From: Anaerolineales bacterium
GTDB taxonomy: Bacteria > Chloroflexota > Anaerolineae > Anaerolineales > Villigracilaceae
Length of the DNA stretch: 64,000 bases
NCBI GenBank assembly: GCA_034435275.1
Contig: DAOTXP010000014.1
Location: 300-64,299, forward strand
Direction: 5' to 3'
Made by a program: the position numbers and the translations under genes. The notes beneath the pieces are model-generated. The model did no database searches. It worked only from the letters and a program-made list of their open reading frames with translations, and was not told the origin of the DNA. Shown here piece after piece: positions 29,746 through 50,935 of the stretch. The stretch's first letter is position 1. Each line of letters opens with the position of its first letter.

Positions 29746-29752
29746 GTCACAG

Positions 29753-35447: not shown

Positions 35448-36833
35448 TTAATCGTCCCCTCCGCCGCCCTCGTCATCGGGATTATTGCTGTCATGACAGG
35501 CAGTGCAGGTCGCCGAATACAAATTGACCGTGTGACAATCGCGGCACGACGCGCCGCCATGATTGACGCCGCGGCCGCCCTCATCTGCGATGCCTGGATG
35601 CGAGCCGTAATAAGGCGCATACCAGTTGCTGGTGGTGTGACAGGTCTCGCAATCCGTCCCGAACATGCCCGCGTGGAACGGCGGGTCGGCATGACAGGAA
35701 ACACACGCGGCGGACAACCCCGCGAACTGGCCTGCGGCATGGCATCGTTCGCAAGTCACGCTGGCATGTGCGCCCGTCAACGGGAAGTTACTCAGGTTGT
35801 GGTCAAAGGCGGCATTCGCCCAATCGGTGGGAGTGTGACAAGCGCCGCAGTCTGTGCCAAAGCGCCCGTTATGCTCGTCATCCTGGCGGTGGCAGGCATA
35901 ACAGTCTGCCGGCGTATCTTTGTACTGTCCGTTGGCGTGGCACCCTTCGCAGGCGACCTCCATATGTTCGCCCTCGAGTTTGAAAGCGGACAGGTTGTGG
36001 TCGAATGTGGCATTTTCCCAGTCGGACGGGTTGTGGCACGCCGCGCAATCCACACCGAAGCGACCGTTGTGTTCGTCGTCCTGGCGGTGGCAGGAATAAC
36101 AGCCGGTGGGCGCGGATTTCAAATCAGCCAGTGAGCGCGCGTCGAGGTGGCATTTGGTACAGATCACTTCGGCGTGCTTTCCCTCCAACGCAAAACCGAC
36201 GCGGCTATGATCGAAATGCACGCCGTAGGTGTCAATGCCGTCATGGCAGGCAAGACAATCACCGCCCCAGCCAAGCAGGTGGGCGGTGGTAAAGGCTACG
36301 TCAATCTGGCGGTGACAGTCGGCGCACACGGCCTGATCGAAGAGAGCCATATCCTGCGCATGGCAATCGGAGCAGGCAAACGGCGCGCGGTCGGGCTTGC
36401 GCACATGCGCGGCCAGCGAATAGCCAAGCGCCTCGTGCGGGAAGTTTCCATTCTTGACAAGAGTCAGCGGCGCGTCGGGGCCGCGATGCTCGGGGTGACA
36501 TTGGGCGCAACCCAGGTTCGGGGTCTGAATTTGAATCGCCCCGTGCAGGGAGGCGGGATCGGATTGCTGGGCTGCCACGTCCGCGTGGCAGGCTATGCAG
36601 CGGTCGTCCATCCGTTCGGAAAAATTCCACGGCGCGGGGTGGCAGGCGGCGCATTCCTGGATGTCCGCATGGGAGGCCGCGCCGCCCAGCATCGGACCGG
36701 ACTGGGAGTTCAAATCGCCCGCGCTGAACATGCTCCCGCCGCTGGCAAAGGAGACCCCGACGATCACAAACAATGTCAGGAGCGCCGAAAAAATGGCTGT
36801 GGCAGAAAAACATCCGAGTCGACTGTTTCGCAT
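35448..36833 (-). CDS. Secreted or membrane-anchored multiheme cytochrome c with 17 CXXCH motifs
   Basis: I counted 17 CXXCH motifs in the translation. The N-terminus has a hydrophobic signal or anchor. There are repeated paired-CXXCH modules and an acidic Gly/Asp tail. Confidence 0.9.
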   Translation of the reverse strand: MRNSRLGCFSATAIFSALLTLFVIVGVSFASGGSMFSAGDLNSQSGPMLGGAASHADIQECAACHPAPWNFSERMDDRCIACHADVAAQQSDPASLHGAIQIQTPNLGCAQCHPEHRGPDAPLTLVKNGNFPHEALGYSLAAHVRKPDRAPFACSDCHAQDMALFDQAVCADCHRQIDVAFTTAHLLGWGGDCLACHDGIDTYGVHFDHSRVGFALEGKHAEVICTKCHLDARSLADLKSAPTGCYSCHRQDDEHNGRFGVDCAACHNPSDWENATFDHNLSAFKLEGEHMEVACEGCHANGQYKDTPADCYACHRQDDEHNGRFGTDCGACHTPTDWANAAFDHNLSNFPLTGAHASVTCERCHAAGQFAGLSAACVSCHADPPFHAGMFGTDCETCHTTSNWYAPYYGSHPGIADEGGRGVNHGGASCRDCHTVNLYSATCTACHDSNNPDDEGGGGDD

Positions 36834-36844
36834 GTTCCCACCTC

Positions 36845-37396
36845 CTATCGCCCAAAAGTGACGTAATACAACGCCGCGCCGATGTGAACGAAGGCCGCTG
36901 CGAACAGCGCCATGCCCAGCGGGATGTGTACAGTGTGCCAGAGTGCCATCAAACGGCGTGCCTGCCTGAGGGCCTCCTGCGGGAGCGTGCCTTCGATCTC
37001 GAGTCCGTCAACAGTGCGCGGGATGCGCGTAAAAATATAGCGGCCGACAAAACCGCTGATCACGATGATGACCGTGAACAGTGTGGTCACCCCGGCCAGC
37101 CCATTGAACTTCCAGGAAGTGTGCAAGAGCACCATGTACGGCCCGACCAGTCCGGTGAAGATGTGAAATTCCAGCCAGGACGACATGCGCCCCCAGCGCG
37201 CACTGCGGCTGCGCTTGCGCAGGCTGTAGAGTGTCTCGGTCATCAGCATCAGGAGGAAGCCGAAGATTCCCAGGCTGTGACCGAAAAAATCACCTGCCGA
37301 GGGAATCCCGCGCGTGAGGATGACAACCCCTGCATAGACTCCCGTAATGAAGATGGCGGCGACGAACGCCAGCCATAATTCCTTGCCTCTCAGCAT
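36845..37396 (-). CDS. Five-TM His-rich membrane protein (possible b-type heme carrier, ferric-reductase-TM/DUF4405-like)
   Basis: Five hydrophobic helices. His residues sit in or near the helices: FGHSL, EFHIF, VLLHTS, WHTVHIP and FVHIG. Confidence 0.55.
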   Translation of the reverse strand: MLRGKELWLAFVAAIFITGVYAGVVILTRGIPSAGDFFGHSLGIFGFLLMLMTETLYSLRKRSRSARWGRMSSWLEFHIFTGLVGPYMVLLHTSWKFNGLAGVTTLFTVIIVISGFVGRYIFTRIPRTVDGLEIEGTLPQEALRQARRLMALWHTVHIPLGMALFAAAFVHIGAALYYVTFGR

Positions 37397-37420
37397 CGCA
37401 ACCTCTCACTAGTATAATTT

Positions 37421-38737
37421 TCAGGCCCGCGCTACCCACCCGCGCCAAAAGTCGGCGAGCAAGTCTGCAATCGGCGCATCGGGCGCGAGTAGTTTTTCGC
37501 GCACCGCGGAAATGTCAGCGCCGCCCGCGATCATCTTCTGCAGGGGTATCGAGAGCGTCTGATCGCCCATGACGACCGCGCCCAGCAGGGACTTCTCGCC
37601 GACGATCAAACGCAGGCGATTGACCTCGAAACCGGTCTGCGCAACAATGGCGTTCGGCAATTGACGCCAGGTCTCGCTGTCGCCGCGGGCAATGCTGACC
37701 AGGTCGTCGTCGCGGCCGCGGCCGACTGTGCCAATGATCGTGGTCGTCAGCCCCGCCAGCCGCGTGACATTGAACGGCACGCCCTTGACGTAGGCCTGCT
37801 TCCGCCCGCACATGTTGAGTCCCGCCGCCCAACCCTGTTCCCGCGCCGGCCCCCAAAGGCTATCCAGGATCGACCTGCCCGAAAGCGGATCGTAGACCTG
37901 CGCCACGTCGCCTGCCGCGAAAATGTCAGGATCGTTCGTCTGCAAATATTCATTAACAAGAACGCCGCGATCCACCGCCAGGCCGGCTCCCTTCGCCAAT
38001 GCCACGCGCGGTTGGATGCCGATGGCATAAGCCAACAGGTCACAATGCAGGGTGCGCCCGTCCAGCAAACGGACACCCGCCACGCGCCCGCGCTTGCCGA
38101 GCACTTCCACCACCTCGGCGTGATGAATCAGTTCCACACCCTCCTCGCACAGACGATGTTCCACGATCTGCGATTCGCTTGCGTCCAGCACATTGCTCCA
38201 GTAACGGCCGCCGCGCAAAAGGTATTGCACTCTGACCCGATGCGCGATCAGGCCCTCGACCAGTTCCAGCGCGGTGATTCCGCCTCCCACCACCGCCGCA
38301 CGGCGGGAACGCTGCGCCAGCATCTCGATTCGACGGGCATCCGCCATGTGATCCAGTTTGACTACGCCCTCCAAGTCTGCACCGGGCACGGTCAACGGAA
38401 CGGCCGAGGCGCCCACCGCCATCAACAGGCGGTCATAGGCCAGGCGATTCTTTTCATCGATCTCCAACTGCCGTTCTTCACGAAGAATCCTGGTCACGCG
38501 TCCCTTCACGTAACGGATCTTCAGCCTCTGGAAATCCTCGGTTGTGAACGGATACAACTGCTTCTCCCCTGCTTCGCCGGTCAAATAATAGGCCAGACCG
38601 GGGCGCGAGTAATATCCGAAGGGATCGTCACTCACCAGAATGATCTCGGCCTCAGCGGGAGAGGGGTGAACCGAGCGAATGGCCTCGATGGCGGCAATCC
38701 CCGCCACGCCGCTGCCGAGGATGACGAAGCGGCTCAT
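37421..38737 (-). CDS. FAD-dependent pyridine nucleotide-disulfide-family oxidoreductase
   Basis: Two Rossmann motifs (ILGSGVAGIAA and VVGGGITALE) and the GD motif (IFAAGDVA). Confidence 0.85.
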   Translation of the reverse strand: MSRFVILGSGVAGIAAIEAIRSVHPSPAEAEIILVSDDPFGYYSRPGLAYYLTGEAGEKQLYPFTTEDFQRLKIRYVKGRVTRILREERQLEIDEKNRLAYDRLLMAVGASAVPLTVPGADLEGVVKLDHMADARRIEMLAQRSRRAAVVGGGITALELVEGLIAHRVRVQYLLRGGRYWSNVLDASESQIVEHRLCEEGVELIHHAEVVEVLGKRGRVAGVRLLDGRTLHCDLLAYAIGIQPRVALAKGAGLAVDRGVLVNEYLQTNDPDIFAAGDVAQVYDPLSGRSILDSLWGPAREQGWAAGLNMCGRKQAYVKGVPFNVTRLAGLTTTIIGTVGRGRDDDLVSIARGDSETWRQLPNAIVAQTGFEVNRLRLIVGEKSLLGAVVMGDQTLSIPLQKMIAGGADISAVREKLLAPDAPIADLLADFWRGWVARA

Positions 38738-39000
38738 TTAACGGCCTCCGCGAACAGGTCGGTGCGCTCGAAACGCAGCACCCCGCGCGGACAGCGCGCC
38801 ACGCACTCACCGCATGTCAAACAGCGGCTGTTATGGATCGGCTCTCCAAGCCAAGCATGGCGGCGCACGTCAATATTGATCGGGCAATTAAAGGAACAAA
38901 TCCCGCATTGCACACAGCGCGCGGGGTCGGGCGTCACCTGACCGCCAATCGAGGCGGCATGGCGGGCGGCCTCGCTGCGAAATAAACTCTTAATGGACAT
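38734..39000 (-). CDS. 2x[4Fe-4S] ferredoxin-domain protein
   Basis: CVQCGICSFNCP and CLTCGECVARCP. The stop overlaps the next start (ATGA). Confidence 0.8.
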   Translation of the reverse strand: MSIKSLFRSEAARHAASIGGQVTPDPARCVQCGICSFNCPINIDVRRHAWLGEPIHNSRCLTCGECVARCPRGVLRFERTDLFAEAVK

Positions 39001-39475: not shown

Positions 39476-40147
39476 TCAAGACCGATTTTTCATTTCCTTC
39501 AAAATGGACGCATATCGCGAGGTCAAATGGAACCAGGGCGGTGACCCGCGCGTCTTCGCGATTCCCCGGCGGATGACCGCCCGCAGCCCGTCCGGACCCT
39601 CGAACGGAGGCAGCGTTAAAGTGGAGCGTCCCAGCTCGAACGCCGCGTGCGCGTCCGACCCGACCGTGATCGGAATCCCGTGTTCCCGCGCGAACTCCAT
39701 CGCCCGCGCGTTGAAGCGCGGCAGCATACAGCGCGAATTGAAGCCCTCGATGGCATCCACGAGAGGCAGGATTTCGAGCAAATCATCCAGCCGCCAGCCG
39801 CCCTGCCGCCACTCGTCGAACGGATGCGAAACGCTGATGAACGCGCCCTGTCCGCGCAATCGGCGAATGGTCTCTTGAGAGGACAGCCCTGCGGGAATCT
39901 CCTCCGTTACGAACGCGGCCAGGATTTCCCCGCGCGTCGTCATGATCTCCTCTCCCACAATGACGCGCTCGGGGTCCAGCGCCTGCGCCGCCTGAGCGCC
40001 TGCAATTGTGTTGTGATCGGTCACCACCACGCGGTCAATTCCCCCGTGGCGGCAGGCCGCGACGAGGGCATCTGGCGAGGTGAGCGAGTCCTTGGAGGCG
40101 GAGGTGTGGGTGTGGAATTCGACGCGAAAATAATGACGAATGTCCAT
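39476..40147 (-). CDS. PHP (polymerase/histidinol-phosphatase-like) domain metal-dependent phosphoesterase
   Basis: VEFHTHTSASKDS, VVVTDHNTIAGA, ISVSHPF and VGSDAHAA are PHP metal-ligand motifs. Confidence 0.75.
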   Translation of the reverse strand: MDIRHYFRVEFHTHTSASKDSLTSPDALVAACRHGGIDRVVVTDHNTIAGAQAAQALDPERVIVGEEIMTTRGEILAAFVTEEIPAGLSSQETIRRLRGQGAFISVSHPFDEWRQGGWRLDDLLEILPLVDAIEGFNSRCMLPRFNARAMEFAREHGIPITVGSDAHAAFELGRSTLTLPPFEGPDGLRAVIRRGIAKTRGSPPWFHLTSRYASILKEMKNRS

Positions 40148-40268
40148 ATCACCATCGTGTTTACACGAAGTATAATTGCTTGACAAACGAAATCGCCAAA
40201 GTATATACTAAATCCGCTTCGACGAACAGTTCTGGGACGAAAAGGTAACTAAAGGGTCGGTTGTTTTT

Positions 40269-41858
40269 ATGGAAGCGATTGGCGAGATCATTTTCCGGCT
40301 GAATACATTTCTTGACAATTCGTTGCCATGGATGGCAGGCATTGCCCTATCCATCTTCAACGCCTACATGTTCATCAAGTGGATTTGGGATAAAACAAAG
40401 GACCAACAGGCACAGGTATCCACATCGATTCAGGTATCAAGGGCTTTTTACTTGTTAGGCATATCGCTCGGTATTCAGGCATTCGTTATCGCCGCATTAT
40501 ACTATTCGCCAGTGTGGGCGCGATGGTTGGAGATCTTCGGAGCAGCATGTGTCTACATTTATTTTCTCACTCGCAAAGAAAGCGACGCGAGGGGTCTGCA
40601 CACAACCGCCGGGCATCTTTCAATCATCTTCCTCGGCTGGTGGCTTGGGAGTTGGCTGGGCATCATTTTCATTTCAGTGCCAATCTTCGTTGCTTTTTAT
40701 TATTGGCTATATCGGATTGCCTTAGCAATTGTCCCTGCATCCGATCCAGAGAGTTCGACTGAAGCCCTGGCGAGATTCAAAATGCTGGCTTGGTATATGT
40801 GGGGGTTACAATTCCCAGTTTGGGTGGCAAAAGATGATCTGGAACGCGTTGCGGAGGAAAGGATCAAAGGGGACTTGACCAAATCTCTTGGTCAGCCGGG
40901 TATGATCTGGGTCCATTCCAATCAGGCAATCGGTATCACGCGCAGCATCCAGTTTTCACGCGTAGAGGGCCCGGGCATAATATTCACGAAGACTTACGAG
41001 CGCCCCTATCAAGTTATGGATCTGAGAACGCAGATTCGTACAGCCGAGGTACAAGCCATCTCGAAAGATGGGATTCCATACAAAGCAATAGTCCTGATTG
41101 TATTCAACCTGGATAAAGATGCATGGACAGAGGATCAGTACAAAACACTCCGCTTAAAAAATTCGCTGTTGCGGGGCGCCCAATCGCTAGACCGAATCTC
41201 CGGAAGTTATAAGTATTCTCGTTCACGCGTCACTGCAGCCCTAAGCATCGAAGGCATCAAGCATACGAGCGTCGAAGGGGAAGCCCGACCGGTTGTCCAC
41301 TGGGATCACTGGGTGGTCAACACGGTCGCGGAGGCGGCGCGCAACGAGTTGTCGCATCGTCCACTGGATGAATTATGGCGAGCAGCCAACGATGGAAAAG
41401 ATGCAAATGCATCGAACATCATTGCAAACAATATCAAGTCGGCGGTTGCAGGCAGACTCAAGGAAAATGGCATCAACCTCATCGCCGCCCGCATCGTCAA
41501 CTTCAATTTTGAAGACAAGGAGGCCAGTAAAGTTTTACAACAGCAGATCGATACTTGGGAATCTCTACGGAACCAGGAAATTGCGAAAACAAGGACCGAA
41601 GCCGCAGCGACATCGGTTCAAATCAGGCAGGACGCATTTGCCTACGCGCGTTCCAAGCTCCTCTCGTCCATCGCCCAGGGAGTGGAGCAAATGATGGAGA
41701 AACACAAGAACCTTCCAACCAAGTATGTGGTTGCTGTCAGATATCTCACCGCCATCGAAGATTGGATAAGCCAACAGGAAGGGGAGGGCGGAACAAAGAT
41801 ACAGGCCCTCCGCTCGAGGCTTAAGGATTTGAACTTCCCTCAAAGTGGGCAGGTTTAA
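40269..41858 (+). CDS. Multi-TM SPFH (band-7/stomatin-prohibitin) domain protein A
   Basis: Several N-terminal TM helices (about aa 20-165). SPFH core GPGIIFTKTYERPYQVMDLRTQIRTAEVQAISKDGIPYKAIVLIVFNLD. Later segment NGINLIAARIVNFNF. C-terminal charged coiled coil. Confidence 0.75.
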   Translation: MEAIGEIIFRLNTFLDNSLPWMAGIALSIFNAYMFIKWIWDKTKDQQAQVSTSIQVSRAFYLLGISLGIQAFVIAALYYSPVWARWLEIFGAACVYIYFLTRKESDARGLHTTAGHLSIIFLGWWLGSWLGIIFISVPIFVAFYYWLYRIALAIVPASDPESSTEALARFKMLAWYMWGLQFPVWVAKDDLERVAEERIKGDLTKSLGQPGMIWVHSNQAIGITRSIQFSRVEGPGIIFTKTYERPYQVMDLRTQIRTAEVQAISKDGIPYKAIVLIVFNLDKDAWTEDQYKTLRLKNSLLRGAQSLDRISGSYKYSRSRVTAALSIEGIKHTSVEGEARPVVHWDHWVVNTVAEAARNELSHRPLDELWRAANDGKDANASNIIANNIKSAVAGRLKENGINLIAARIVNFNFEDKEASKVLQQQIDTWESLRNQEIAKTRTEAAATSVQIRQDAFAYARSKLLSSIAQGVEQMMEKHKNLPTKYVVAVRYLTAIEDWISQQEGEGGTKIQALRSRLKDLNFPQSGQV

Positions 41859-41861
41859 ACC

Positions 41862-43262
41862 ATGGATCATCCGTCCGAGAAATGGCAAACCCTTTACACC
41901 AGCGAACAGGCGCGCTGGCAGGATGCCCGCCAGATTTTAACGACCCTCTTGCCGTTAATTGCCTTGGCTCTGGCGAGTGTGGTTTCGGCACTCGTGTTTG
42001 TCTCTTCGGATTCGAACCGTTTTATCAATTCATCCAGCACAATCGCCGGGACACTTTCAGCAGGCCTCATGATCCTTATTGTGGTGTTTCCACTAATAGT
42101 GGGTATCGTCGGCATAATTCTGATCTTTCGTATGGCGCACAAATGGTTCAAAGATGCTTATCAGCCGCCAAAGAGTACTAACACGAGGCCCTTAATCCTT
42201 CGTAGGCTCTTTGGTTACCCACCCCTCCCCCCACCATTGGACACCATGATCAAGTATCCATTTGTCATAATCAAAGATGGGGCGTTATTGAAAGACGAAC
42301 AGGCCTGGGTCAAATGGTTGGGCGGTCCAACTTCTTTGGTTATCTCAGATGGGAATGCAGTTTATGTGGAACGTGGTAACCGCTTTTCAAGAGTAATCGG
42401 TCCGGGGTTGGCCTTCCTGGAAAAACACGAAGCAATAAAAGAAATCGTCGACCTTCGGCCACGAGTGCTTACCCGTAAAATAGAGGCATGGACGAAGGAT
42501 GGCATCAAAGTCGAATTTCAAACACTGATCAAATTCCGCATCGGTGCAGTTCAGGGAACAGTGTTCCCACAGGACTTGCCTGATATCGCATCCGGGAAAG
42601 ACGCGAGGACCGCTGGTGAAAATCTACCTCTGTTCCCCTGCGATCCTATCTGTGTAAAAAAGGCAGTGGAATGGGGCAAAGTCGGAAGAGAATTCGTGGA
42701 CGGAAAAGAGAAACTGGCTTTATTGAAGTGGCCGGAGGGTGTATGGGGTAAAGTGCAGGGCAGGCTTGCCAATTATGTATCTACACATCATCTCGATGAA
42801 CTTTTCGTGGCGTCAAAAAACAGTCCGTCGGGGCAAATGCTCTCCAGCCGTGAGCGTGAAATCCTGAGAGCAAGACTTGATCAGGACTTAATGGACGAGG
42901 CTGGGATAACACTGATTGATCTTCAAATAACTGATTTCAAACTTGATCCGAATATCAATGTAAAGCGGGTCGAAAAGTGGACATCGGAATGGAAAGCAAA
43001 AGAGGAAATTCGCAGCGCGAAGGCAGACGCGGAAAAGACCAAGGCAGTGGAAACCGCCCGAGCCGAAGCCCAGCGCGATTTGATTCTACAAATCGCGGAT
43101 GGATTAAGCGTTGCCAATGAAAAGACATTTGCAGATGCCGTTCTCCTCTCCCTTTCAGGTATTCTCGAACAAAGCCTCGGCGATCCTTATGCGCCTGCAT
43201 ATCTTGCTCACGAGACCCTGGAAACCCTTGAAAAAATCCAGGAATTACTCAAGAAACCGTAG
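41862..43262 (+). CDS. Multi-TM SPFH domain protein B (paralog of A)
   Basis: N-terminal TM helices. SPFH core GPGLAFLEKHEAIKEIVDLRPRVLTRKIEAWTKDGIKVEFQTLIKFRIGA. Later segment AGITLIDLQITDFKL. Coiled coil AKEEIRSAKADAEKTKAVETARAEAQRD. Starts 3 nt after A. Confidence 0.7.
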   Translation: MDHPSEKWQTLYTSEQARWQDARQILTTLLPLIALALASVVSALVFVSSDSNRFINSSSTIAGTLSAGLMILIVVFPLIVGIVGIILIFRMAHKWFKDAYQPPKSTNTRPLILRRLFGYPPLPPPLDTMIKYPFVIIKDGALLKDEQAWVKWLGGPTSLVISDGNAVYVERGNRFSRVIGPGLAFLEKHEAIKEIVDLRPRVLTRKIEAWTKDGIKVEFQTLIKFRIGAVQGTVFPQDLPDIASGKDARTAGENLPLFPCDPICVKKAVEWGKVGREFVDGKEKLALLKWPEGVWGKVQGRLANYVSTHHLDELFVASKNSPSGQMLSSREREILRARLDQDLMDEAGITLIDLQITDFKLDPNINVKRVEKWTSEWKAKEEIRSAKADAEKTKAVETARAEAQRDLILQIADGLSVANEKTFADAVLLSLSGILEQSLGDPYAPAYLAHETLETLEKIQELLKKP

Positions 43263-43280
43263 TCCTTTACGGGGAGCCAA

Positions 43281-44348
43281 ATGAATAAAACCTTCGCATA
43301 CATCCTGAACAAGCTCGAGATCAACGACAACATCATTGCGGACCTACGTCATCGTACCATCAGCGTGAGCAGCCTGGAGCAGGCCAGTACAGTTCTCGCG
43401 GAAATTAAGTTCCGCATCGACCTGTGTCTAGAGACTCGTTGTAAAGAGGATAAACCATATTACTTCATGTTTCACGCTTACTGTAATTTATATACAGACA
43501 AGAGAGAGGAAGCAGTCAACGCAACCACGTATGCCATTGACGATTTCCGCGTCTGCGGTCTCTCTTGGAACGAGGTGGTTGGACATTGGTTCCTAGGTTC
43601 GATTTATGCAACTGAAAGCAGGGGTTACCTGTACCTTGCCGAATTGAACTTGGCGCTGGATATCGCGAACCCGCTCTATCAGGAGCTCATAATTCAGGGT
43701 GAATATGAACAAGCCGCAAAATACCAGAAAGTAATTTCAAAGTTAGAAAGCCAAAAACAGACTGCGACAAAAATGGGCACGGGGCCGCTTCGGATGCCGA
43801 CGGAGTCGCTCAAATTCACAGACGATCTTCCCTCAATGGGCTCGGAAGATTATCTGGTCCTGCCCTGGCTCCCCAGCTACAATGCTGTAAAAGCAACACC
43901 AAACGGATTGATCTGGGATCGTCCGGTAAAGGAAATCAGGTCCTCCATCCGCAACATGGAGATCAACAGCAGTCGCTATACGATATATTCACTGCAAAGA
44001 CAGTCGCCCACCGACCATCAGGTGACTTTGGTCGAGCATGAACAATATGGCTGGGCAAAGGTGGAAGGAAAAAGCATGAATGCGTCCCTTCCGACCTCAA
44101 TAAATGAGGGAGACCAAATCCTTTTTCACATCAACATCAAGCCTCGCGATGGGGACATTGTGGTTGCATCAGAACTAATGGCTTCCGGCAACTATGCTTA
44201 TATGGTCAAGAGATACCGCGCCTTGGGCAATGAACTGGTATCGGAGACTAATGACAAGGACCCCGGCCAATCTTACGATCCAATAAAATTGGATGGTCAT
44301 CACCAAATCCTGGGCATCGTCATTGCTGTAGCCAAGCCTGCTAGATAA
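43281..44348 (+). CDS. Helical-repeat N-domain fused to an S24 (LexA/CI/UmuD-type) Ser-Lys peptidase domain
   Basis: The C-terminal part contains WAKVEGKSMNAS, EGDQILF, DGDIVVA, YMVKRY and HQILGIVIAVAK. These follow the GxSM...GD(i)VvA...vKR...G.V layout of S24 peptidases. No HTH is evident in the N-terminal part. Confidence 0.7.
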   Translation: MNKTFAYILNKLEINDNIIADLRHRTISVSSLEQASTVLAEIKFRIDLCLETRCKEDKPYYFMFHAYCNLYTDKREEAVNATTYAIDDFRVCGLSWNEVVGHWFLGSIYATESRGYLYLAELNLALDIANPLYQELIIQGEYEQAAKYQKVISKLESQKQTATKMGTGPLRMPTESLKFTDDLPSMGSEDYLVLPWLPSYNAVKATPNGLIWDRPVKEIRSSIRNMEINSSRYTIYSLQRQSPTDHQVTLVEHEQYGWAKVEGKSMNASLPTSINEGDQILFHINIKPRDGDIVVASELMASGNYAYMVKRYRALGNELVSETNDKDPGQSYDPIKLDGHHQILGIVIAVAKPAR

Positions 44349-44361
44349 CACTGAGAACATC

Positions 44362-45273
44362 ATGTCCAACAAATTTGTCGTCGCACCTACAGTTAAAAAC
44401 ACATCTGTCGCTCTCCTCGCCCTCGAATCGACCGTCATCACGCACGGACTGCCGCGGCCGCAGAACTTGGAACTGGCGCGGGCCATGGAAGCGGAAGTGC
44501 GGCGCGGCGGCGCGACGCCTGCCACCGTCGCGGTCCTGGATGGGAAGATTCGCGTCGGGTTGACGGATGAGGAGTTGGTCCGGCTGGCCGAGGCCGAATC
44601 CCCGCTCAAGATCAGCCGCCGCGACTTCGCCACGGCCATCGCCAAAAAAGCCAGCGGCGGGACGACCGTGGCCGGCACCATGTTCGCCGCGCACCAGGCG
44701 GGCATTCGCGTCTTTGCCACGGGCGGGATCGGCGGTGTTCACAAGGAAAGCCGCTTCGACATTTCCACCGACATGCAGACGCTGGCCGACACGCCCATGA
44801 TCGTGGTCTGCGCGGGGGCCAAATCCATCCTCGACCTGCCTGCCACGCTGGAGACCCTCGAAACACTGAGCGTGCCCGTCGTCGGCTACGGCACGGACGA
44901 GTTCCCCGCCTTCTTCAGCCGTTCGAGCGGACTGCCCGTCAGCGCGCGGCTCGACTCGCCGCAGGAGGTTGCCGCGTTCGCCAAGGCTCATTGGGGCATC
45001 GGCATGAAGTCCGCCGTGCTGGTCTGCCAGCCGATTCCCATGGAGGATGAAATTCCTCTGGAAGAGATCGAACCCATCGAAGAACAGGCCTCGCGCGAAG
45101 CCATCGAAAAGGGAATCACCGGCCAGAGACTCACGCCATTCCTGCTTCAGCGCGTCAACGAATTGACCGCAGGCCGTTCGCTGCACGCCAACCTGGCCCT
45201 CCTGCTCAACAACGCCCGCCTCGCGGCGCAGATCGCCAAAGCCCTGTCTCCGCGCAAGACTCGCGCAGTATAA
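44362..45273 (+). CDS. psuG: Pseudouridine-5'-phosphate glycosidase
   Basis: VALESTVITHGLPRPQNLE, ATVAVLDGKIRVGL and GGIGGVHK are IndA/PsuG motifs. Confidence 0.9.
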   Translation: MSNKFVVAPTVKNTSVALLALESTVITHGLPRPQNLELARAMEAEVRRGGATPATVAVLDGKIRVGLTDEELVRLAEAESPLKISRRDFATAIAKKASGGTTVAGTMFAAHQAGIRVFATGGIGGVHKESRFDISTDMQTLADTPMIVVCAGAKSILDLPATLETLETLSVPVVGYGTDEFPAFFSRSSGLPVSARLDSPQEVAAFAKAHWGIGMKSAVLVCQPIPMEDEIPLEEIEPIEEQASREAIEKGITGQRLTPFLLQRVNELTAGRSLHANLALLLNNARLAAQIAKALSPRKTRAV

Positions 45274-46206: not shown

Positions 46207-47076
46207 CTACGGGGTCGGAGATGGGGCCTGGGTCGCGGATGGAACGGACGTCGGCATGGATTCGAGAGTCGGCGAGGGAGTCAGGCTGGGAGTCGCAGTA
46301 GGAGGATCGCCTTCGATGACGAATATCCCGACTTTTTTTAATTCCTGTCCGACGAACAAAGCAACCTGATAATTACCCGGGAGCCACTGGTCTGCGGGCG
46401 GGCCCCAGTCCGTGAATCCATAGCCGCCCGTGCCGCCGTCCCAAGGCTTGGTCTCGTGGAATACATAAACACCATCGCGATACCAGATGGCAGTCCACTG
46501 CGCGCCGGGCAGCATGTCGGTATATGTGAAGACGCCGTACATGTGGTCAATCGGGTTGCGGAAGAACGTGCCCGGGCTGACTGCCTCGATGACGCCATTG
46601 GACACGTCAATGTTGATGACGGTCGAAAATTGCAGCGGGCTGAAGTTGGCGTTGGGGTTCGGCGTGACCAGGCTGGTGAACTGGGCCTCCACCGCGGGGG
46701 GCAGGTAAGGGGTCGGAGTGATCGTGGAGGTGTCGGTCACGGCGGGTGTGTCGGTCACGGAGGGAGTCAGCGTGATGGAGGGCGTCAGGGTGATGGTCGG
46801 TACGAGGGACGGGGTCACCGTCAACGTGGGACTGGGCGAGGGAGGAAAATAGTGATAGGCCACCGGCTCACCCCAGACCCCCAGTGCGGCCGCGAGGCCC
46901 AGGAGGAGGATTGCCAGCCCAATCAAACGCCAGCCGGCAACCATCCGCCCGCGGCGCAGTTTAAAGAAAGTGAGTTTGCGAGCGGATTGAATGGCGCGCA
47001 GGCCGGCGCGCACGATAAAGAATGCGCCGACCAAAGACATAATGATCGCGGCGATAATCCCAGCGCGGATATCCAT
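46207..47076 (-). CDS. N-terminally anchored surface protein: TM, PT linker, conserved unknown domain, PT tail
   Basis: TM helix GIIAAIIMSLVGAFFIV followed by RKLTFFKLRRGR, a PT linker, and a domain with GAQWTAIWYRDG...KPWDGG..GYGF. Short paralog of the N-terminal part of the next gene. Confidence 0.6.
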   Translation of the reverse strand: MDIRAGIIAAIIMSLVGAFFIVRAGLRAIQSARKLTFFKLRRGRMVAGWRLIGLAILLLGLAAALGVWGEPVAYHYFPPSPSPTLTVTPSLVPTITLTPSITLTPSVTDTPAVTDTSTITPTPYLPPAVEAQFTSLVTPNPNANFSPLQFSTVINIDVSNGVIEAVSPGTFFRNPIDHMYGVFTYTDMLPGAQWTAIWYRDGVYVFHETKPWDGGTGGYGFTDWGPPADQWLPGNYQVALFVGQELKKVGIFVIEGDPPTATPSLTPSPTLESMPTSVPSATQAPSPTP

Positions 47077-47113: not shown

Positions 47114-50100
47114 TCACGGGCGAGGGGTGGACGTGGCAGTCGGCTGAACGGGGAAGTGCACGATGCGCGGCTCTACCCACAGGGCACGGTCGTTGGAGGC
47201 CTGTCCGATCGAAAGGATGGTCAGCACGAACTTGACGTTCTGCCCGGCCAGGGAACTGAGATCCAAATCAACGCTGAATGAACTACCTTCGTACCGTTCG
47301 CCGAACGCCCAAAACTCGCGAATGAAACCACCTTCCATTTGATAGTCCACCCTGAACAGGACAAAGCAAGCCGTCGCCTTGTTCTCGCAACCGATCACCG
47401 CCTGGAAGCGGTCGCCTTCCTGAACCGTGTAGGATGGATATACGGCGCGGATGTAGCCGTTATCCACATTCTGCGGGACGGTCAATAAGGCCGGTCGATT
47501 CTGAGCCGATCCGTTTTCGAGGACGGGATTGGTTAGTTTCAGGACGAAGCCGTTTGCATCGCCGTCCCTGCCCGGACAATTCAGGTTGCCCACGCCGCTG
47601 AACCACTTCGCCGAACAGGCGTTAGCGACGAAGTCGTAGGTCGTACCCTGCTGGGGCACGCCGACAACCCGAATGGAAACCCAGAAGGGGCGATTGGCTG
47701 TGGAAGCCGTCCCGAAGATCTCACCGGCCTCGTTCTTCAATTGCCAGTTGCCGCGATAGTTTCCTTCTGCCAGGGGTGCGACGAGATTAACCGCCACGTC
47801 AATGGTCTGCCCAGGGGCAACGCTCGCCGGGAGCGGCAGTTGCTGCACCCCGCCCATGATGTCGCCGCTGACAAAGACAATGTTATAGGTGGTCTTCCAC
47901 GTGCATGTTCCAACATTTTTCAAGCGCCAGATCTTGGTGAACGTCGTACCAGGCGAGAAGGTCGAGCCGTCGGGAACAGTGATGTCGGCGACGAATTCGG
48001 CGCGGTCACACCCGCGATTCGGGGTCGGAGTGTTCGTCCGCAGAATGGGGGTTAGCGTTCTGGTAACCGTCGCCGTCCGAGTTGGTGTACGCGAGGGCGT
48101 GCGGGTGAAGGTGGGCGTCCGCGTCGATGTGCGTGAGGGTGTGAGAGTCGGCGTTGGAGTCTTTGTCGGCGTCACAGACGGTGTCAACGTCGGCGTGCGG
48201 GTAACGGTGGCGGTGAAAGTCAAAGTTGGTGTCCGCGTCGGACGCGGTGTTTCGGTCGGGATCGGCGTCCGCGTGGCTGTGTTCGTTGGCGTGCGCGAGG
48301 GCGTGAAGGTCAGTGACGGCGTGAAAGTTGCCGTGAAGGTCGAGGTCGGAGTACGCGTGTTGGTTGGCGTTTCGGTTGGCCGCGGTGTCCGCGTCGGACG
48401 CGGTGTTTCGGTCGGGATCGGCGTCCGCGTGGCTGTGTTGGTCGGCGTACGTGAGGGCGTGAAAGTGACCGTTGGAGTCCATGTTGACGTGAACGTCGCA
48501 GTCGGTGTGCGCGTCGGACGCGGCGTGTCAGTCGGAATCGGTGTCCGCGTCGGACGCGGTGTTTCGGTCGGGATCGGCGTCCGCGTGGCTGTGTTGGTCG
48601 GCGTACGTGAGGGCGTGAAAGTGACCGTTGGCGTCCATGTTGACGTGAACGTCGCAGTCGGTGTGCGCGTGAAGGTTGGCGTTTCGGTTGGCCGCGGGGT
48701 GCGCGTGGGACGCGGCGTATCGGTCGGGATCGGCGTCCGCGTGGCTGTGTTCGTCGGCGTACGCGAGGGCGTGAAGGTCAGTGACGGCGTGAAAGTTGCC
48801 GTGAAGGTCGAGGTCGGAGTACGCGTGTTGGTTGGCGTTTCGGTTGGCCGCGGTGTCCGCGTCGGACGCGGCGTCTCGGTCGGGATCGGCGTGCGCGTCG
48901 GGCGCGGCGTCTCGGTTGGAGTATGAGTCCGTGTGGGTGTGTTCGTCGGAGTCCGCGAGGGTGTGAAGGTGATCGTCGGTGTCCGGGTCGCAGTGAAAGT
49001 TGAAGTCGGAGTCCGCGTAGGACTCGGCGTGTTTGTCGGTGTGTGAGTCCGCGTGGGCGTGTTCGTGGGCGTGAAGGTGGGAGTCCGCGTAACAGTCGGT
49101 GTCCAGGTCGGGGTCAGGGAATGGGTTGGGCTGGGCGTAAAGGACGGGTCGAGACAAACGGGAATCGAATCGGTGAACCCGAACGGGTCACGCGTGGAGC
49201 CGTGCTCGTCGTAAATCTTCACATATCGAATGTATGGGAATTGCTTCAGATTCGCCATGAGGGGCTGGGCGATGGTGTAGAGCGTACCATTGGACTGGCA
49301 GGCCCCCAATAGATAGAGATGCGCAATGCCGTCCGCGTATGCAAATCGGTCGTAGCCGGTGAAACCATTCAAGACCAGGGTCAGGCCCTCTTCGCGTTCG
49401 GTGGATGTGGGTCCTCTGAAATACAAATCCAACACCGCAGCGACAGGATTCTTCGACGAGGGCACACTGCGACTCACAGCCACCTCGTAAGGTAACTGCC
49501 CGCTGACCAAACGGTCGTTATCCGTAAAGTAAACGTCCATTCCCACTTCCAGAGGCGTACGCGTCGGAGAGGCCGTGAAGGTCGGGCGCGGCGTGCGCGA
49601 GGGGGTGAACGTGGCAGAAGGCGTGAACGTGCGCGTGGACGTTGCGGTGGAGGTGGGCGTGCGGCTGGGAGGCGGCGTGTTCGTCGGTGTGAAGGTGCGC
49701 GAGGGCGTCCGCGTCGGCGTGGACGAGGAGGGGAGAGTCACGGTCGGCGTGCGCGTGGCGGAAGCGGTCCGCGTCGGCGTACGACTCGGGCGAGGCGTCT
49801 CGGTTGGAATGGGGGAATTCGTTGGAGTCCGCGAGGGCGTCAGGGTCGGGGTCGGCGTGCGCGCGGCGGTGTTGGTGGACGTGGGCGTACGCGTGGAAGT
49901 TGTCGTTGGAAGAGGCGTTCGCGAAGGTGTGTAGGATGGCTGGCCCGGGAGAACAGCGGGCAGAGGCGTCGCGGTGGCAGTGGGGACCGGCGTGCGAGTG
50001 GAAGTGGGCGAAGCCGTCTGGCTGGGCGTGCGCGAGGGAACGGGGGTCGAGGTGCCGGTCGCGGTGCGGGTGGGAGTGCGCGAGGGCGTCCGCGTGGGAA

Positions 50101-50935
50101 GCGGCGTGTTCGATGGAGTCGAGGTCAGGGTCGCAGTGGGACTCGGCGTGCGGGTGAGAGTCGGACTGGGGGTGAAGGTCGCGGTCGGCGGATTGCCGGT
50201 CAGAGTGAAGCGTCCGCTGGCCTCCCATAGGGAGCCGACATAAATCTGTACTTCGTACTCACCTGCCAGCCACTCATCCGGCGGCAACTCGCAATCGGAA
50301 AAGCCATAGCCGCTCGGCAGGCCGTCCCAGGGTTTGGTTTCGAGGCACTTGCCGAGCAGCTGGCCGTTCTGATACCATAGCGCGGTCCACTGCACGCCGG
50401 GGGTCATATGGCTGACTGTGAAAACTGCAAACATGCGCTTGATGGGATTGCGCCAGGTGGTGCTGGGATTGACTGGCAGGGCGAATTCCATTTCGGTGGA
50501 AAATTTGAGTTCGCCGATCTGGACCTGCGGGTCCGGTGTGATCGTGCTGGAGGAAAGCGCCTCGATGGCCGGAGGCAGAACGGGGACAGGGGTATAAGTC
50601 GGTTCGGGTGTGAGGAAAAACGTGGGTGGCAGCGGCGTCGGAGTCATCCATGCCGTCTGGGTTGCAGTGGGAGGACGCGTGGAGGTTGGCGCGGGCGGCG
50701 TCGCCCGTGCGGTGAGAGATTCGCCATAGCGATACGCCAAAAAGCCCAGAACGAAAATCAAAAGGGAGACCCCGATGAATCGCCACCCGACGGTCACGCG
50801 CTGTTGGCGCTGACGGAAAAACGTCAGGCGGCGGCCGGACGAGATGGCGCGCAGTCCCGCGACGAACAGACCCAGCGCGACCGCCGCCAGCAGGAAGACA
50901 ACGACCCATATCCAGAGTTGAATATTCACCAGCAA
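47114..50935 (-). CDS. 1273-aa multidomain surface protein
   Basis: Single uninterrupted ORF. In order it contains the following:
- a TM anchor
- a shared unknown domain
- a PT region
- a GerMN-like domain (about 49170-49545: [18 protein letters not shown]..., [15 protein letters not shown])
- a PT tandem-repeat region
- an NBR1-like Ig domain (47663-47995: [27 protein letters not shown])
- a C-terminal unknown domain. Confidence 0.8.
48017..49135 (-). repeat. Coding tandem repeats (about 51-53-aa Pro/Thr-Arg units, with a 468-bp higher-order repeat)
   Basis: The plus-strand word tccgcgtcggacgcggtgtttcggtcgggatcggcgtccgcgtggctgtgtt recurs near 48232, 48385 and 48543. The segment starting gcgtgaaggtcagtgacggc at 48301 recurs at 48769, an offset of 468 bp. 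Confidence 0.85.

Follow-up and report, generated by a model that had tools for sequence, protein, structure and literature searches.

Scaffold proteins of the SPFH superfamily, such as stomatin, prohibitin, and flotillin as well as HflK/C, are universal, and their function in bacteria is poorly understood. HflK and HflC form a bacterial hetero-oligomeric SPFH cage that regulates the FtsH protease. To our knowledge, the dedicated partners of SPFH proteins are NfeD and FtsH. Autoproteases of the S24 family are irreversible switches that have been studied in depth. As far as we know, almost every characterized one is either a DNA-binding repressor or UmuD, with RecA* as the signal to which it responds. 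Here we describe a gene trio that unites both families. It is located in a stretch of 64,000 nucleotides from an Anaerolineales bacterium (Chloroflexota; GenBank assembly GCA_034435275.1, contig DAOTXP010000014.1, positions 300 to 64,299 of the forward strand), which is called the window throughout. Two adjacent genes, A and B, encode paralogous SPFH membrane proteins, and the third gene, C, encodes a soluble protein with a TPR-like N-terminal domain and an S24 peptidase core. The trio represents an SPFH scaffold with a dedicated protease partner, in a combination for which no earlier description was found. It recurs across the Anaerolineae, and its most likely role would be that of a new membrane-based stress or anti-phage switch.

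Results

Two SPFH proteins and a soluble partner are encoded by a compact gene trio

The three genes and the parts of protein C are located at the following positions of the window:

40269-41858, forward strand: gene A, a 529-residue SPFH/Band_7 protein with multiple transmembrane segments (Pfam Band_7, homologues)
41862-43262, forward strand: gene B, a 466-residue SPFH/Band_7 protein (Pfam Band_7, AlphaFold2, Foldseek)
43281-44348, forward strand: gene C, a 355-residue protein (Pfam, AlphaFold2, Foldseek)
43281-43775, forward strand: TPR-like all-helical N-terminal domain of C, residues 1-165 (AlphaFold2, Foldseek)
43854-43907, forward strand: candidate cleavage-site region of C, residues 192-209, LPWLPSYNAVKATPNG (homologue alignments)
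43944-44348, forward strand: S24 (LexA/UmuD/CI-type) catalytic core of C, residues 222-355 (Pfam, Foldseek)

All three open reading frames (ORFs) are on the forward strand, and the intergenic gaps are only 3 nt (A-B) and 18 nt (B-C). The ORF list thereby confirmed the close packing that had been noted in a preliminary description of the locus, and every peptide string quoted there was present in the ORF translations. Full-length homologues of all three proteins were found in many other genomes, which marks A, B, and C as real genes and rules out chance ORFs.

The preliminary description had regarded A and B as SPFH proteins and had predicted matches to the Pfam family Band_7 (PF01145). Indeed, both proteins exceeded the gathering cut-off of that family (23.6 bits), A with 30.1 bits (E 5.9e-7) and B with 39.2 bits (E 9.6e-10). 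They are paralogs of each other (23% identity, E 1e-11). A contains about 4-5 hydrophobic segments within residues 19-155, followed by the SPFH core (about residues 205-445) and a charged C-terminal helical region, and B contains two transmembrane (TM) helices, at about residues 29-47 and 71-89. In the AlphaFold2 (AF2) model of B (mean predicted local distance difference test score, pLDDT, 78.6), the SPFH alpha/beta domain comprises residues 134-361, and it is followed by a coiled-coil helix of 55 residues (363-417) and two further helices. When this model was compared with known structures using Foldseek, the top match was HflK/C (7vhq, E 3.5e-10), and human stomatin, erlin, prohibitin, QmcA-YbbJ (8z5g), flotillin, and the vault protein MVP (9mxv, E 7e-9) were also found. 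The Foldseek probability was 1.00 for HflK/C, stomatin, prohibitin, erlin, flotillin, and QmcA. At the sequence level, a profile of 31 B homologues had its best match among PDB sequences in the Pyrococcus (PH) stomatin 3bk6 (E 3e-4). A and B are members of the SPFH superfamily by profile, and the B model also has the characteristic fold and the long coiled-coil helix.

The topology of the two membrane proteins was deduced from two features. B carries 7 lysine or arginine residues within the 30 residues after TM2 (positive-inside rule). In a homologue of A from the comparison locus L086 (L numbers denote comparison loci, and P numbers denote homologous proteins), the domains are arranged in the order TIR, TM hairpin, and SPFH, and the hairpin is homologous to residues 117-155 of the window A. 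Because of the charge bias after TM2 of B, and because a TM hairpin lies between the TIR and the SPFH domains in the L086 protein, the SPFH domains of A and B are predicted to be on the cytoplasmic side. This is also the predicted compartment of the soluble protein C, in which no TM segment was found. The pairwise identities of A are strongly correlated with those of B (rho 0.82). Taking this co-variation together with the homology to known SPFH proteins, we infer that A and B would assemble into a membrane-attached ring or cage.

An additional conserved element of B was observed just past TM2. Residues 116-126 (42207-42239) form the near-invariant proline-rich motif LFGxPPLPPPL, of which, in the 31 B homologues, G118 and P123 are invariant and P124 and P125 are conserved in at least 90%. 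The motif is absent from the window A, and D, a further SPFH paralog found in some relatives (see below), is gapped at this position in the hhalign alignment. On a speculative note, this motif could be a candidate docking site for the TPR-like domain of C.

Protein C has the build of a LexA-type switch with a TPR-like domain

Protein C matched the Pfam family Peptidase_S24 with 36.2 bits over residues 247-348 (gathering cut-off 23.3 bits), as had been expected (PF00717), and fold comparison agreed with this assignment. With NCBIfam, weak sub-threshold matches to UmuD and LexA were obtained, which covered only the S24 core. The AF2 model (mean pLDDT 81) comprises eight helices at residues 1-165 (pLDDT >90), a linker of low confidence (169-221), and a beta-rich domain (222-355). 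For the latter, Foldseek found UmuD' (1ay9, TMt 0.70), UmuD (8gmt, TMt 0.73), the cleavable fragment of lambda CI, and LexA, with TMt values of 0.6-0.7 for the C-terminal domains of LexA and CI. The N-terminal domain matched the TPR domains of LGN, Rap, kinesin light chain, and NASP. The sequence of C did not match any PDB chain, so that fold comparison alone gave matches. A helix-turn-helix (HTH) motif was found neither by Pfam nor by NCBIfam nor by fold comparison. Thus, the eight-helix solenoid and its TPR matches bear out the earlier view that the N-terminal part of C is helical, TPR-like, and devoid of an HTH.

The nucleophile of the S24 core is Ser265 in the motif VEGKSM (44073-44075), and the general base is Lys310 in the motif MVKRY (44208-44210). 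Both residues are invariant in 23 full-length homologues, and they are conserved in at least 85% of the sequences across 18 loci. About 60 residues upstream of the serine, the family has a cleavage-site consensus, LPxYxSV(R)AGxxG, and at least 85% of the sequences share P198, Y200, A205, G206, and G209. This motif resembles the cleavage site of lambda CI (YPVFSHVQA/GMF). The presumed scissile bond of the window C is Ala205-Thr206 (43893-43898), and it is Ala-Gly in most homologues. A glycine at the P1' position (Ala/Gly-Gly) is present in 15 of the 18 loci; Ala-Thr is found in the window and in its 82%-identical relative P0002, and Ala-Ser is found in L022. Judging from the conserved motif, C may cleave itself at the bond between Ala205 and position 206, and the Ala-Thr site of the window copy may be cleaved poorly or not at all.

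C therefore has a LexA/CI-like build, in which a functional domain at the N-terminus is joined to the S24 core by a linker that carries the cleavage-site motif. Where LexA and CI have their DNA-binding domain, C has a TPR-like one. The two halves of the protein evolve differently. Across the 18 loci, the mean pairwise identity is 22% for the N-terminal domain versus 40% for the half with the cleavage site and the S24 core. The TPR-like domain is the hypervariable part of the module. In terms of presence, it is nevertheless more constant than the S24 domain, as 6 of 52 C-like genes keep the TPR-like part alone (see below). The preliminary description had recognized the S24/TPR layout correctly, and it had overlooked the cleavage-site motif, the Ala-Thr bond of the window copy, the hypervariability of the N-terminal domain, and the constancy of its presence.

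Some members of the C family are longer than the window protein, and no Pfam domain was found in their C-terminal extensions. Three proteins, P0025, P0023, and P0219, share a tail of about 50 residues (...RLIxxEK...P...ERAxxRLxxDR) after the S24 core. Pfam gave no match for this tail, which the window C lacks.

Gene order and chromosomal slot are conserved

With a word-indexed search, about 27 close relatives of C were found, and an exhaustive profile search yielded 166 clusters (50% identity) with E-values of at most 1e-30. At least 288 homologues of B and 52 homologues of A were retrieved. The named sources of the homologues were all Chloroflexota/Anaerolineae, with the exception of two labels of metagenome-assembled genomes that look mis-binned. 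The two loci in question, L020 (DYNZ01000140.1, labelled Leptospira biflexa) and L015 (DYDH01000022.1, labelled Herpetosiphon sp.), have the Anaerolineae-type synteny PHP, A, B, C, psuG, and their odd taxon labels are likely to result from mis-binning or mislabelling.

The order A-B-C was invariant in 18 of 18 non-redundant loci that were reached through C or B. In addition, 80 further metagenome loci were fetched through B alone, and all counts were restricted to loci with room on the relevant side. Gene A was located directly upstream of B in 58 of 58 of these loci, and a C-like gene followed B in 52 of 57 loci. Co-conservation of the three genes as neighbours, on which the preliminary description had made its proposal depend, was thus verified. 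An S24 core was detectable in 46 of the 52 C-like genes, and the remaining 6 contained the TPR-like domain only. As a side observation, two related loci (L081/L082:8441-8779) contain a remnant of 113 residues of the C N-terminal domain between B and psuK, which suggests that C has decayed in some lineages that retained A and B intact.

The trio is also the core of a larger form. In some loci, a five-gene arrangement A-B-C-D-E was found (L025:10495-13484, L023:10611-14253, L024:10523-13920, L007:9201-12235, L041, and L105). D and E are SPFH paralogs of B according to profile-profile comparison (probability 99.4% and 98.6%, respectively), and Pfam barely detects them. In these loci, four SPFH paralogs surround one TPR-S24 gene. 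The composition of the trio had been described correctly before, and these variants with two extra SPFH paralogs had escaped notice.

In the window, the trio is flanked by two backbone genes that lie outside the module:

39476-40186, reverse strand: PHP-domain gene, left border of the slot
44362-45273, forward strand: psuG (Indigoidine_A, pseudouridine-5'-phosphate glycosidase), right border of the slot

No genes other than A, B, and C lie between them, and no homologue of D, E, psuK, or a TIR gene was found anywhere in the 64-kb window. The window copy is therefore the minimal three-gene form of the module. Most relatives have the module in the same slot. Among the metagenome loci, a PHP gene was located upstream in 33 of 37, and psuK (PfkB) or psuG was located downstream in 20 of 27.

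The module behaves like a fast-evolving cassette

The G+C content is 0.46-0.52 across positions 40000-44250 and 0.58-0.68 on either side, and it is 0.49 for the trio itself (40269-44348) against 0.59-0.65 for its flanks. At third codon positions (GC3), the values are 0.57 for A, 0.51 for B, and 0.56 for C, compared with 0.69-0.80 for ten neighbouring genes, a difference of about 0.2. Both the windowed G+C and the GC3 values thus substantiate the drop between the PHP gene and psuG that had been noticed before. Amino-acid composition was considered as its cause and ruled out, because the largest drop occurs at third codon positions and is mainly synonymous. The low G+C content is not peculiar to the window, as the module was more AT-rich than its surroundings in 24 of 24 loci compared, by 2 to 16 points.

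The sequences of the module genes also diverge from those of the backbone. Backbone genes of the relatives are 60-89% identical to those of the window (68-73% for the PHP gene), and A, B, and C are 30-55% identical. For the 8 loci with both flanks, the identity of the trio did not correlate significantly with the identity of the flanks (Spearman 0.14-0.32). Within the trio, the identity of C is decoupled from that of A and B (rho 0.23-0.29). The window A and B are closest to L025, L012, L005, and L013, and the window C is closest to L023 and L003. In a comparison of L001 with L018, the identities are 53% for A, 60% for B, and only 25% for C. This pair exemplifies that the N-terminal domain of C has been swapped within A/B clades.

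The edges of the module contain no att-like direct repeats beyond a chance-level 14-mer, no integrase gene, and no tRNA gene, and the sole tRNA gene of the window is located at position 29752. Insertion of a recent mobile island was ruled out because att repeats, a tRNA gene, and an integrase are lacking at the edges and because most relatives have the module in the same slot. The earlier proposal of horizontal acquisition, which had been based on the atypical composition, oversimplifies this picture. We read the module as a long-resident, fast-evolving cassette in a conserved slot, parts of which have been exchanged among lineages.

TIR domains and other immune-type genes are associated with the module

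In two loci, a TIR_2 domain was found at the N-terminus of the A homologue (L086, E 8e-25; L098, E 3e-23). The fusion genes (L086:5013-6968 and L098:2121-4235) encode a TIR domain, a linker, a TM hairpin, and an SPFH domain, and each is followed by a B homologue; in L086, no C gene is present downstream. No prior description of TIR-SPFH fusions was found in the literature searched. A second type of fusion is represented by P0025 (L026:945-2087), which consists of a TIR domain and a C-type S24 core. The S24 part is 48% identical to C, and the TIR domain is 46% identical (E 6e-50) to the product of a stand-alone TIR gene that follows C in L079. The gene for P0025 is preceded by a gene for a MazE-like antitoxin, and SPFH genes were not found nearby. 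Stand-alone TIR genes on the same strand follow C at a distance of 4 nt in L044, 94 nt in L085, and 118 nt in L079. The module is thus tied to TIR in three ways, by fusion to A, by fusion to a C-type S24 core, and by a gene after C.

The distribution of the stand-alone TIR genes was analyzed with a TIR model in 813 kb of loci. All six genes are located within about 1 kb of the module, and 60% of the flank sequence is farther away. The corresponding probability of about 0.004 is approximate, since the model was built partly from the same TIR genes and some of the loci are related.

Further immune-type genes were found in the neighbourhood. DUF4062 genes are present in L069, where the gene follows A-B, and in L091. 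DUF4062 has been reported to be a TIR-like NADase of an anti-phage system (bioRxiv 10.64898/2026.05.01.722283). SLOG plus TIR is a neighbour in L074, TIR-STAND-TPR genes are present in L005, a trypsin-WD40 gene in L049, and a gene for a KAP NTPase in L007. In four loci, an ORC/CDC6-like P-loop ATPase of 525-676 residues with the N-terminal motif PYITxDxPFGPI is encoded beside or inside the module:

L051:4583-6157, reverse strand: ORC/CDC6-like ATPase, between B and C
L065:5779-7353, reverse strand: ORC/CDC6-like ATPase
L101:5838-7454, reverse strand: ORC/CDC6-like ATPase
L075:3741-5768, reverse strand: ORC/CDC6-like ATPase with a C-terminal TIR domain

This ATPase may be an accessory component.

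Borders of the module and neighbouring genes in the window

One putative regulatory element was found at the left border of the trio:

40180-40209, forward strand: promoter-like site TTGACA-18-TATACT, 11 of 12 consensus positions, a consensus match that carries no evidence of function

It is located about 60 nt 5' of gene A, inside the divergent intergenic region of 82 nt that is shared with the PHP gene. At the right border, psuG starts 13 nt past the stop codon of C. No terminator-like site was found between the two genes, and psuG may be co-transcribed with the module. In most relatives, psuG is preceded by PfkB/psuK, which in several of them abuts or overlaps the stop codon of C. In the window, C is directly followed by psuG (junction 44349-44361), and psuK is absent from the whole window. 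L007, L024, and L025 also lack psuK.

Two groups of neighbouring genes were recorded. To the left of the slot, the conserved backbone at 35448-39000 (reverse strand) encodes a multi-haem cytochrome c with many CxxCH motifs, a membrane protein that resembles b-type cytochromes, a pyridine-nucleotide disulfide oxidoreductase, and a small ferredoxin, and this stretch is syntenic in L009, L021, and L023. To the right, two adjacent genes on the reverse strand (46207-47076 and 47114-50935) encode proteins of 289 and 1273 residues, both of which have a TM segment at their very N-terminus and carry Pro/Thr-rich repeats of great length (TPTxTPSRTPT...), with globular C-terminal domains in the larger protein. 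The repeats cause a strong GC and AT skew as well as long shadow ORFs on the opposite strand.

Discussion

Proposed mechanism

We tentatively interpret the module as an SPFH cage at the cytoplasmic face of the membrane that is combined with an autoproteolytic adaptor and serves in conflict or stress sensing, a reading in which our trust falls slightly short of our doubt. According to this interpretation, and as suggested by their homology to HflK/C, stomatin, and prohibitin, which form such assemblies, A and B would associate through the SPFH domains and the coiled coils at their C-termini. The resulting hetero-oligomeric ring or cage would be located at the cytoplasmic membrane face. The soluble protein C would act as an adaptor, and its hypervariable TPR-like domain, presumably a binder of peptides, would dock to the cage, bind a variable ligand, or do both. 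A trigger would then allow the cleavage-site loop to enter the S24 active site; candidates are a perturbation of the membrane or the cage, a foreign protein bound to the TPR-like domain, or RecA*. C would cut itself between the TPR-like domain and the S24 core, and this irreversible step would alter the state of the cage. The output would be a conflict or stress response, which in some variants may be mediated by TIR-type NADase domains. In the TIR-bearing variants, the SPFH ring could provide the oligomerization platform that TIR domains need, and for the window copy, which has no TIR, the output might be the membrane assembly itself or an unlinked factor. A switch for phage or stress sensing had been suggested before. 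For this part of the earlier proposal, the TIR fusions and TIR neighbours provide circumstantial support, and the mechanism is conditional in all its steps.

Various observations weigh against a role in conflict or stress sensing by self-cleavage. The window copy and most of the loci lack a TIR domain or another recognizable effector, and therefore the immune interpretation is based on a minority of about 16 of 97 loci. None of the PADLOC-DB v2 models matched A, B, C, D, or E significantly, and no relatives of C and B were found in viral contigs (IMG/VR). In most relatives, the module is found at a single fixed place of the chromosome, and several copies abut or overlap the start of psuK, a pattern that also fits a lineage-specific housekeeping cluster. 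The test for discordance between trio and flank identities comprised just 8 loci. With regard to proteolysis, the cleavage-site loop of C was modelled with pLDDT <50, so that the AF2 model is uninformative about docking of the loop to the active site. In the window C, the presumed scissile bond reads Ala-Thr and not Ala-Gly, and changes at that glycine block cleavage in the LexA G85D and lambda CI ind- mutants. Furthermore, proteolysis is not indispensable in all variants, because six loci lack a detectable S24 core.

Alternative explanations

The module could instead be a lineage-specific housekeeping system for membrane organization or quality control, with an A/B cage that organizes a microdomain or controls a client in the membrane, in the manner of HflK/C-FtsH or stomatin-NfeD, C as an adaptor-protease for turnover, and immune genes that have accumulated in a permissive neighbouring hotspot. 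The common slot in most relatives, the tight junction with psuK/psuG, the scarcity of copies with a recognizable effector, the negative PADLOC result, and the general scaffold function of other SPFH families, which were the Foldseek relatives of B, would all agree with such a role. However, the GC3 of the module is far below that of the host, and all loci compared show a higher A+T content in the module than in the host. The identity of the trio is decoupled from that of the backbone, the N-terminal domain of C is hypervariable, and fusions join TIR domains physically to A and to a C-type S24 core, with TIR genes specifically within about 1 kb. The fusions are hard to account for by neighbourhood alone and therefore weigh against this explanation, which we consider unlikely on balance. 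C could also act in trans and process A and/or B, which would remodel the cage instead of cutting C itself, much as the NfeD protease 1510-N of Pyrococcus cuts the C-terminal region of the stomatin PH1511. There is an operon precedent of an SPFH protein with a Ser-Lys protease, and PH stomatin was the best PDB sequence match for B; C has a weak match to signal peptidase I (S26, same clan; E 0.015), and the Ala-Thr site of the window copy is perhaps a poor self-substrate. This possibility nevertheless appears quite improbable to us, as the CI/LexA-like cleavage motif is conserved within C itself and a non-exhaustive look at the tails of A and B revealed no conserved site of the Ala-Gly type. 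The characterized S24 enzymes that we know of cut just themselves or their dimer partner.

Two further explanations start from the similarity of C to SOS proteins. C could be a RecA*-dependent SOS-type switch, in which RecA filaments that arise upon DNA damage or during phage replication would stimulate the self-cleavage of C, as they do for LexA, CI, and UmuD, and would thus connect the damage signal with the SPFH complex in the membrane. This would be a trigger-specific variant of the sensing module outlined above. Its fold and motifs are closest to the RecA*-responsive proteins lambda CI, UmuD, and LexA, for which structures on RecA filaments exist (8gmu, 8gmt, and 8trg). Yet the neighbourhood contains no DNA-repair-related gene, the conserved partners are membrane proteins, and the hypervariability of the TPR-like domain points to a ligand that varies and not to RecA as an invariant signal, so that we give little credence to this trigger. 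An ordinary LexA/CI-type prophage repressor or UmuD-like translesion subunit with unrelated SPFH neighbours, an outcome that the preliminary description had named as fatal to its proposal, is hardly credible. It would explain the weak NCBIfam matches of the S24 core; nevertheless, the lack of an HTH and the conserved order of the genes refute it. C has a TPR-like domain at its N-terminus and occurs almost universally together with A and B, no umuC, integrase, att repeat, or phage gene is located nearby, and no relatives are found in viral contigs.

Among these readings, conflict or stress sensing by an SPFH cage with an autoproteolytic adaptor is the likeliest. A bolder version would define a new class of bacterial immune or conflict systems, with an inner-face SPFH cage as platform, a hypervariable TPR-S24 protein as irreversible trigger, and TIR/DUF4062 NADases that, where present, would be activated by clustering on the SPFH ring, as a prokaryotic counterpart of the vault. 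We regard this version as attractive and doubtful.

Significance

The operon would provide SPFH proteins with a partner of a new kind and perhaps with a function in immunity, and it would give S24 proteins a non-transcriptional, membrane-associated use of the LexA-type switch. The TIR-SPFH fusions offer material for the question of whether SPFH rings act as oligomerization platforms for NADases. In addition, the interval between PHP and psuK/psuG is a variable hotspot in the Anaerolineae, a poorly studied and largely uncultured filamentous group. The literature searched contained nothing that links SPFH proteins with S24 or LexA-like proteins, or SPFH proteins with anti-phage functions, or S24 proteins with TPR domains and defence. 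It contained no TIR system that uses an SPFH scaffold or an S24 switch, and a systematic TIR discovery paper mentions neither. Together with the PADLOC result, this agrees with the statement in the preliminary description that no system of this composition has been described.

Comparison with known systems

With HflK/HflC-FtsH, the module shares two paralogous, adjacent, and co-evolving SPFH genes, an SPFH domain that is followed by a long coiled-coil helix, and the pairing with a protease. However, HflK and HflC have one TM helix each and are periplasmic, whereas A and B have 2 to about 5 TM segments and predicted cytoplasmic SPFH domains. The identity is about 15%, and the partner is a soluble TPR-S24 autoprotease and not the AAA+ metalloprotease FtsH, for which no gene was found in the module cluster. 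With stomatin-NfeD (PH1511/PH1510; QmcA-YbbJ), the module shares an SPFH gene in an operon with a partner, and long NfeD is also a Ser-Lys dyad protease. In contrast, the S24 protease belongs to clan SF and does not have a ClpP/S49-like fold, it is soluble, contains a TPR-like domain, and has its own cleavage-site motif, and the module contains two to four SPFH paralogs instead of one. NfeD, an OB-fold membrane protein family, is not listed for any gene in the annotated loci. The earlier idea that an S24 peptidase has replaced NfeD can be kept as an analogy only, as there is no locus with an NfeD intermediate.

C resembles LexA, lambda CI, and UmuD in its core fold (TMt 0.65-0.73), the GxSM nucleophile, the VKR general base, the upstream V-x-A-G motif of the family consensus, and the order of N-terminal domain, linker, candidate cleavage site, and S24 core. 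It differs from them in the TPR-like N-terminal domain without an HTH, the membrane-protein partners, the Ala-Thr bond of the window copy, and the spacing between the site and the serine, which is about 60 residues in C compared with about 35-37 in LexA and CI. Nothing in the module suggests DNA binding or a link to RecA. Similarities to TIR immune systems (Thoeris-type; DUF4062 'Swarozyc') are the TIR_2 domains, which occur in fusions with A or with the C-type S24 core or as products of genes directly after C, and the DUF4062, SLOG, and STAND-type ATPase neighbours. Unlike these systems, A to E have no PADLOC model, and most copies, including that of the window, have no TIR.

The eukaryotic vault is a cage of SPFH fold (MVP, with an SPFH-like shoulder) that encloses TEP1 with its TIR-like/DUF4062 NADase, and in the module a DUF4062 gene follows A-B in L069. 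NADase activity of the vault protein TEP1 has been reported (bioRxiv 10.64898/2026.05.01.722283). The vault is soluble, its protein is much larger, and it has neither an S24 nor a TPR partner. The resemblance, which stems from a few loci, is an analogy and no evidence of homology between the systems. Taken together, the module would function most like a pairing of SPFH proteins with a protease, as in HflK/C-FtsH and stomatin-NfeD, that has been joined to a LexA-type switch, and it is a member of neither group.

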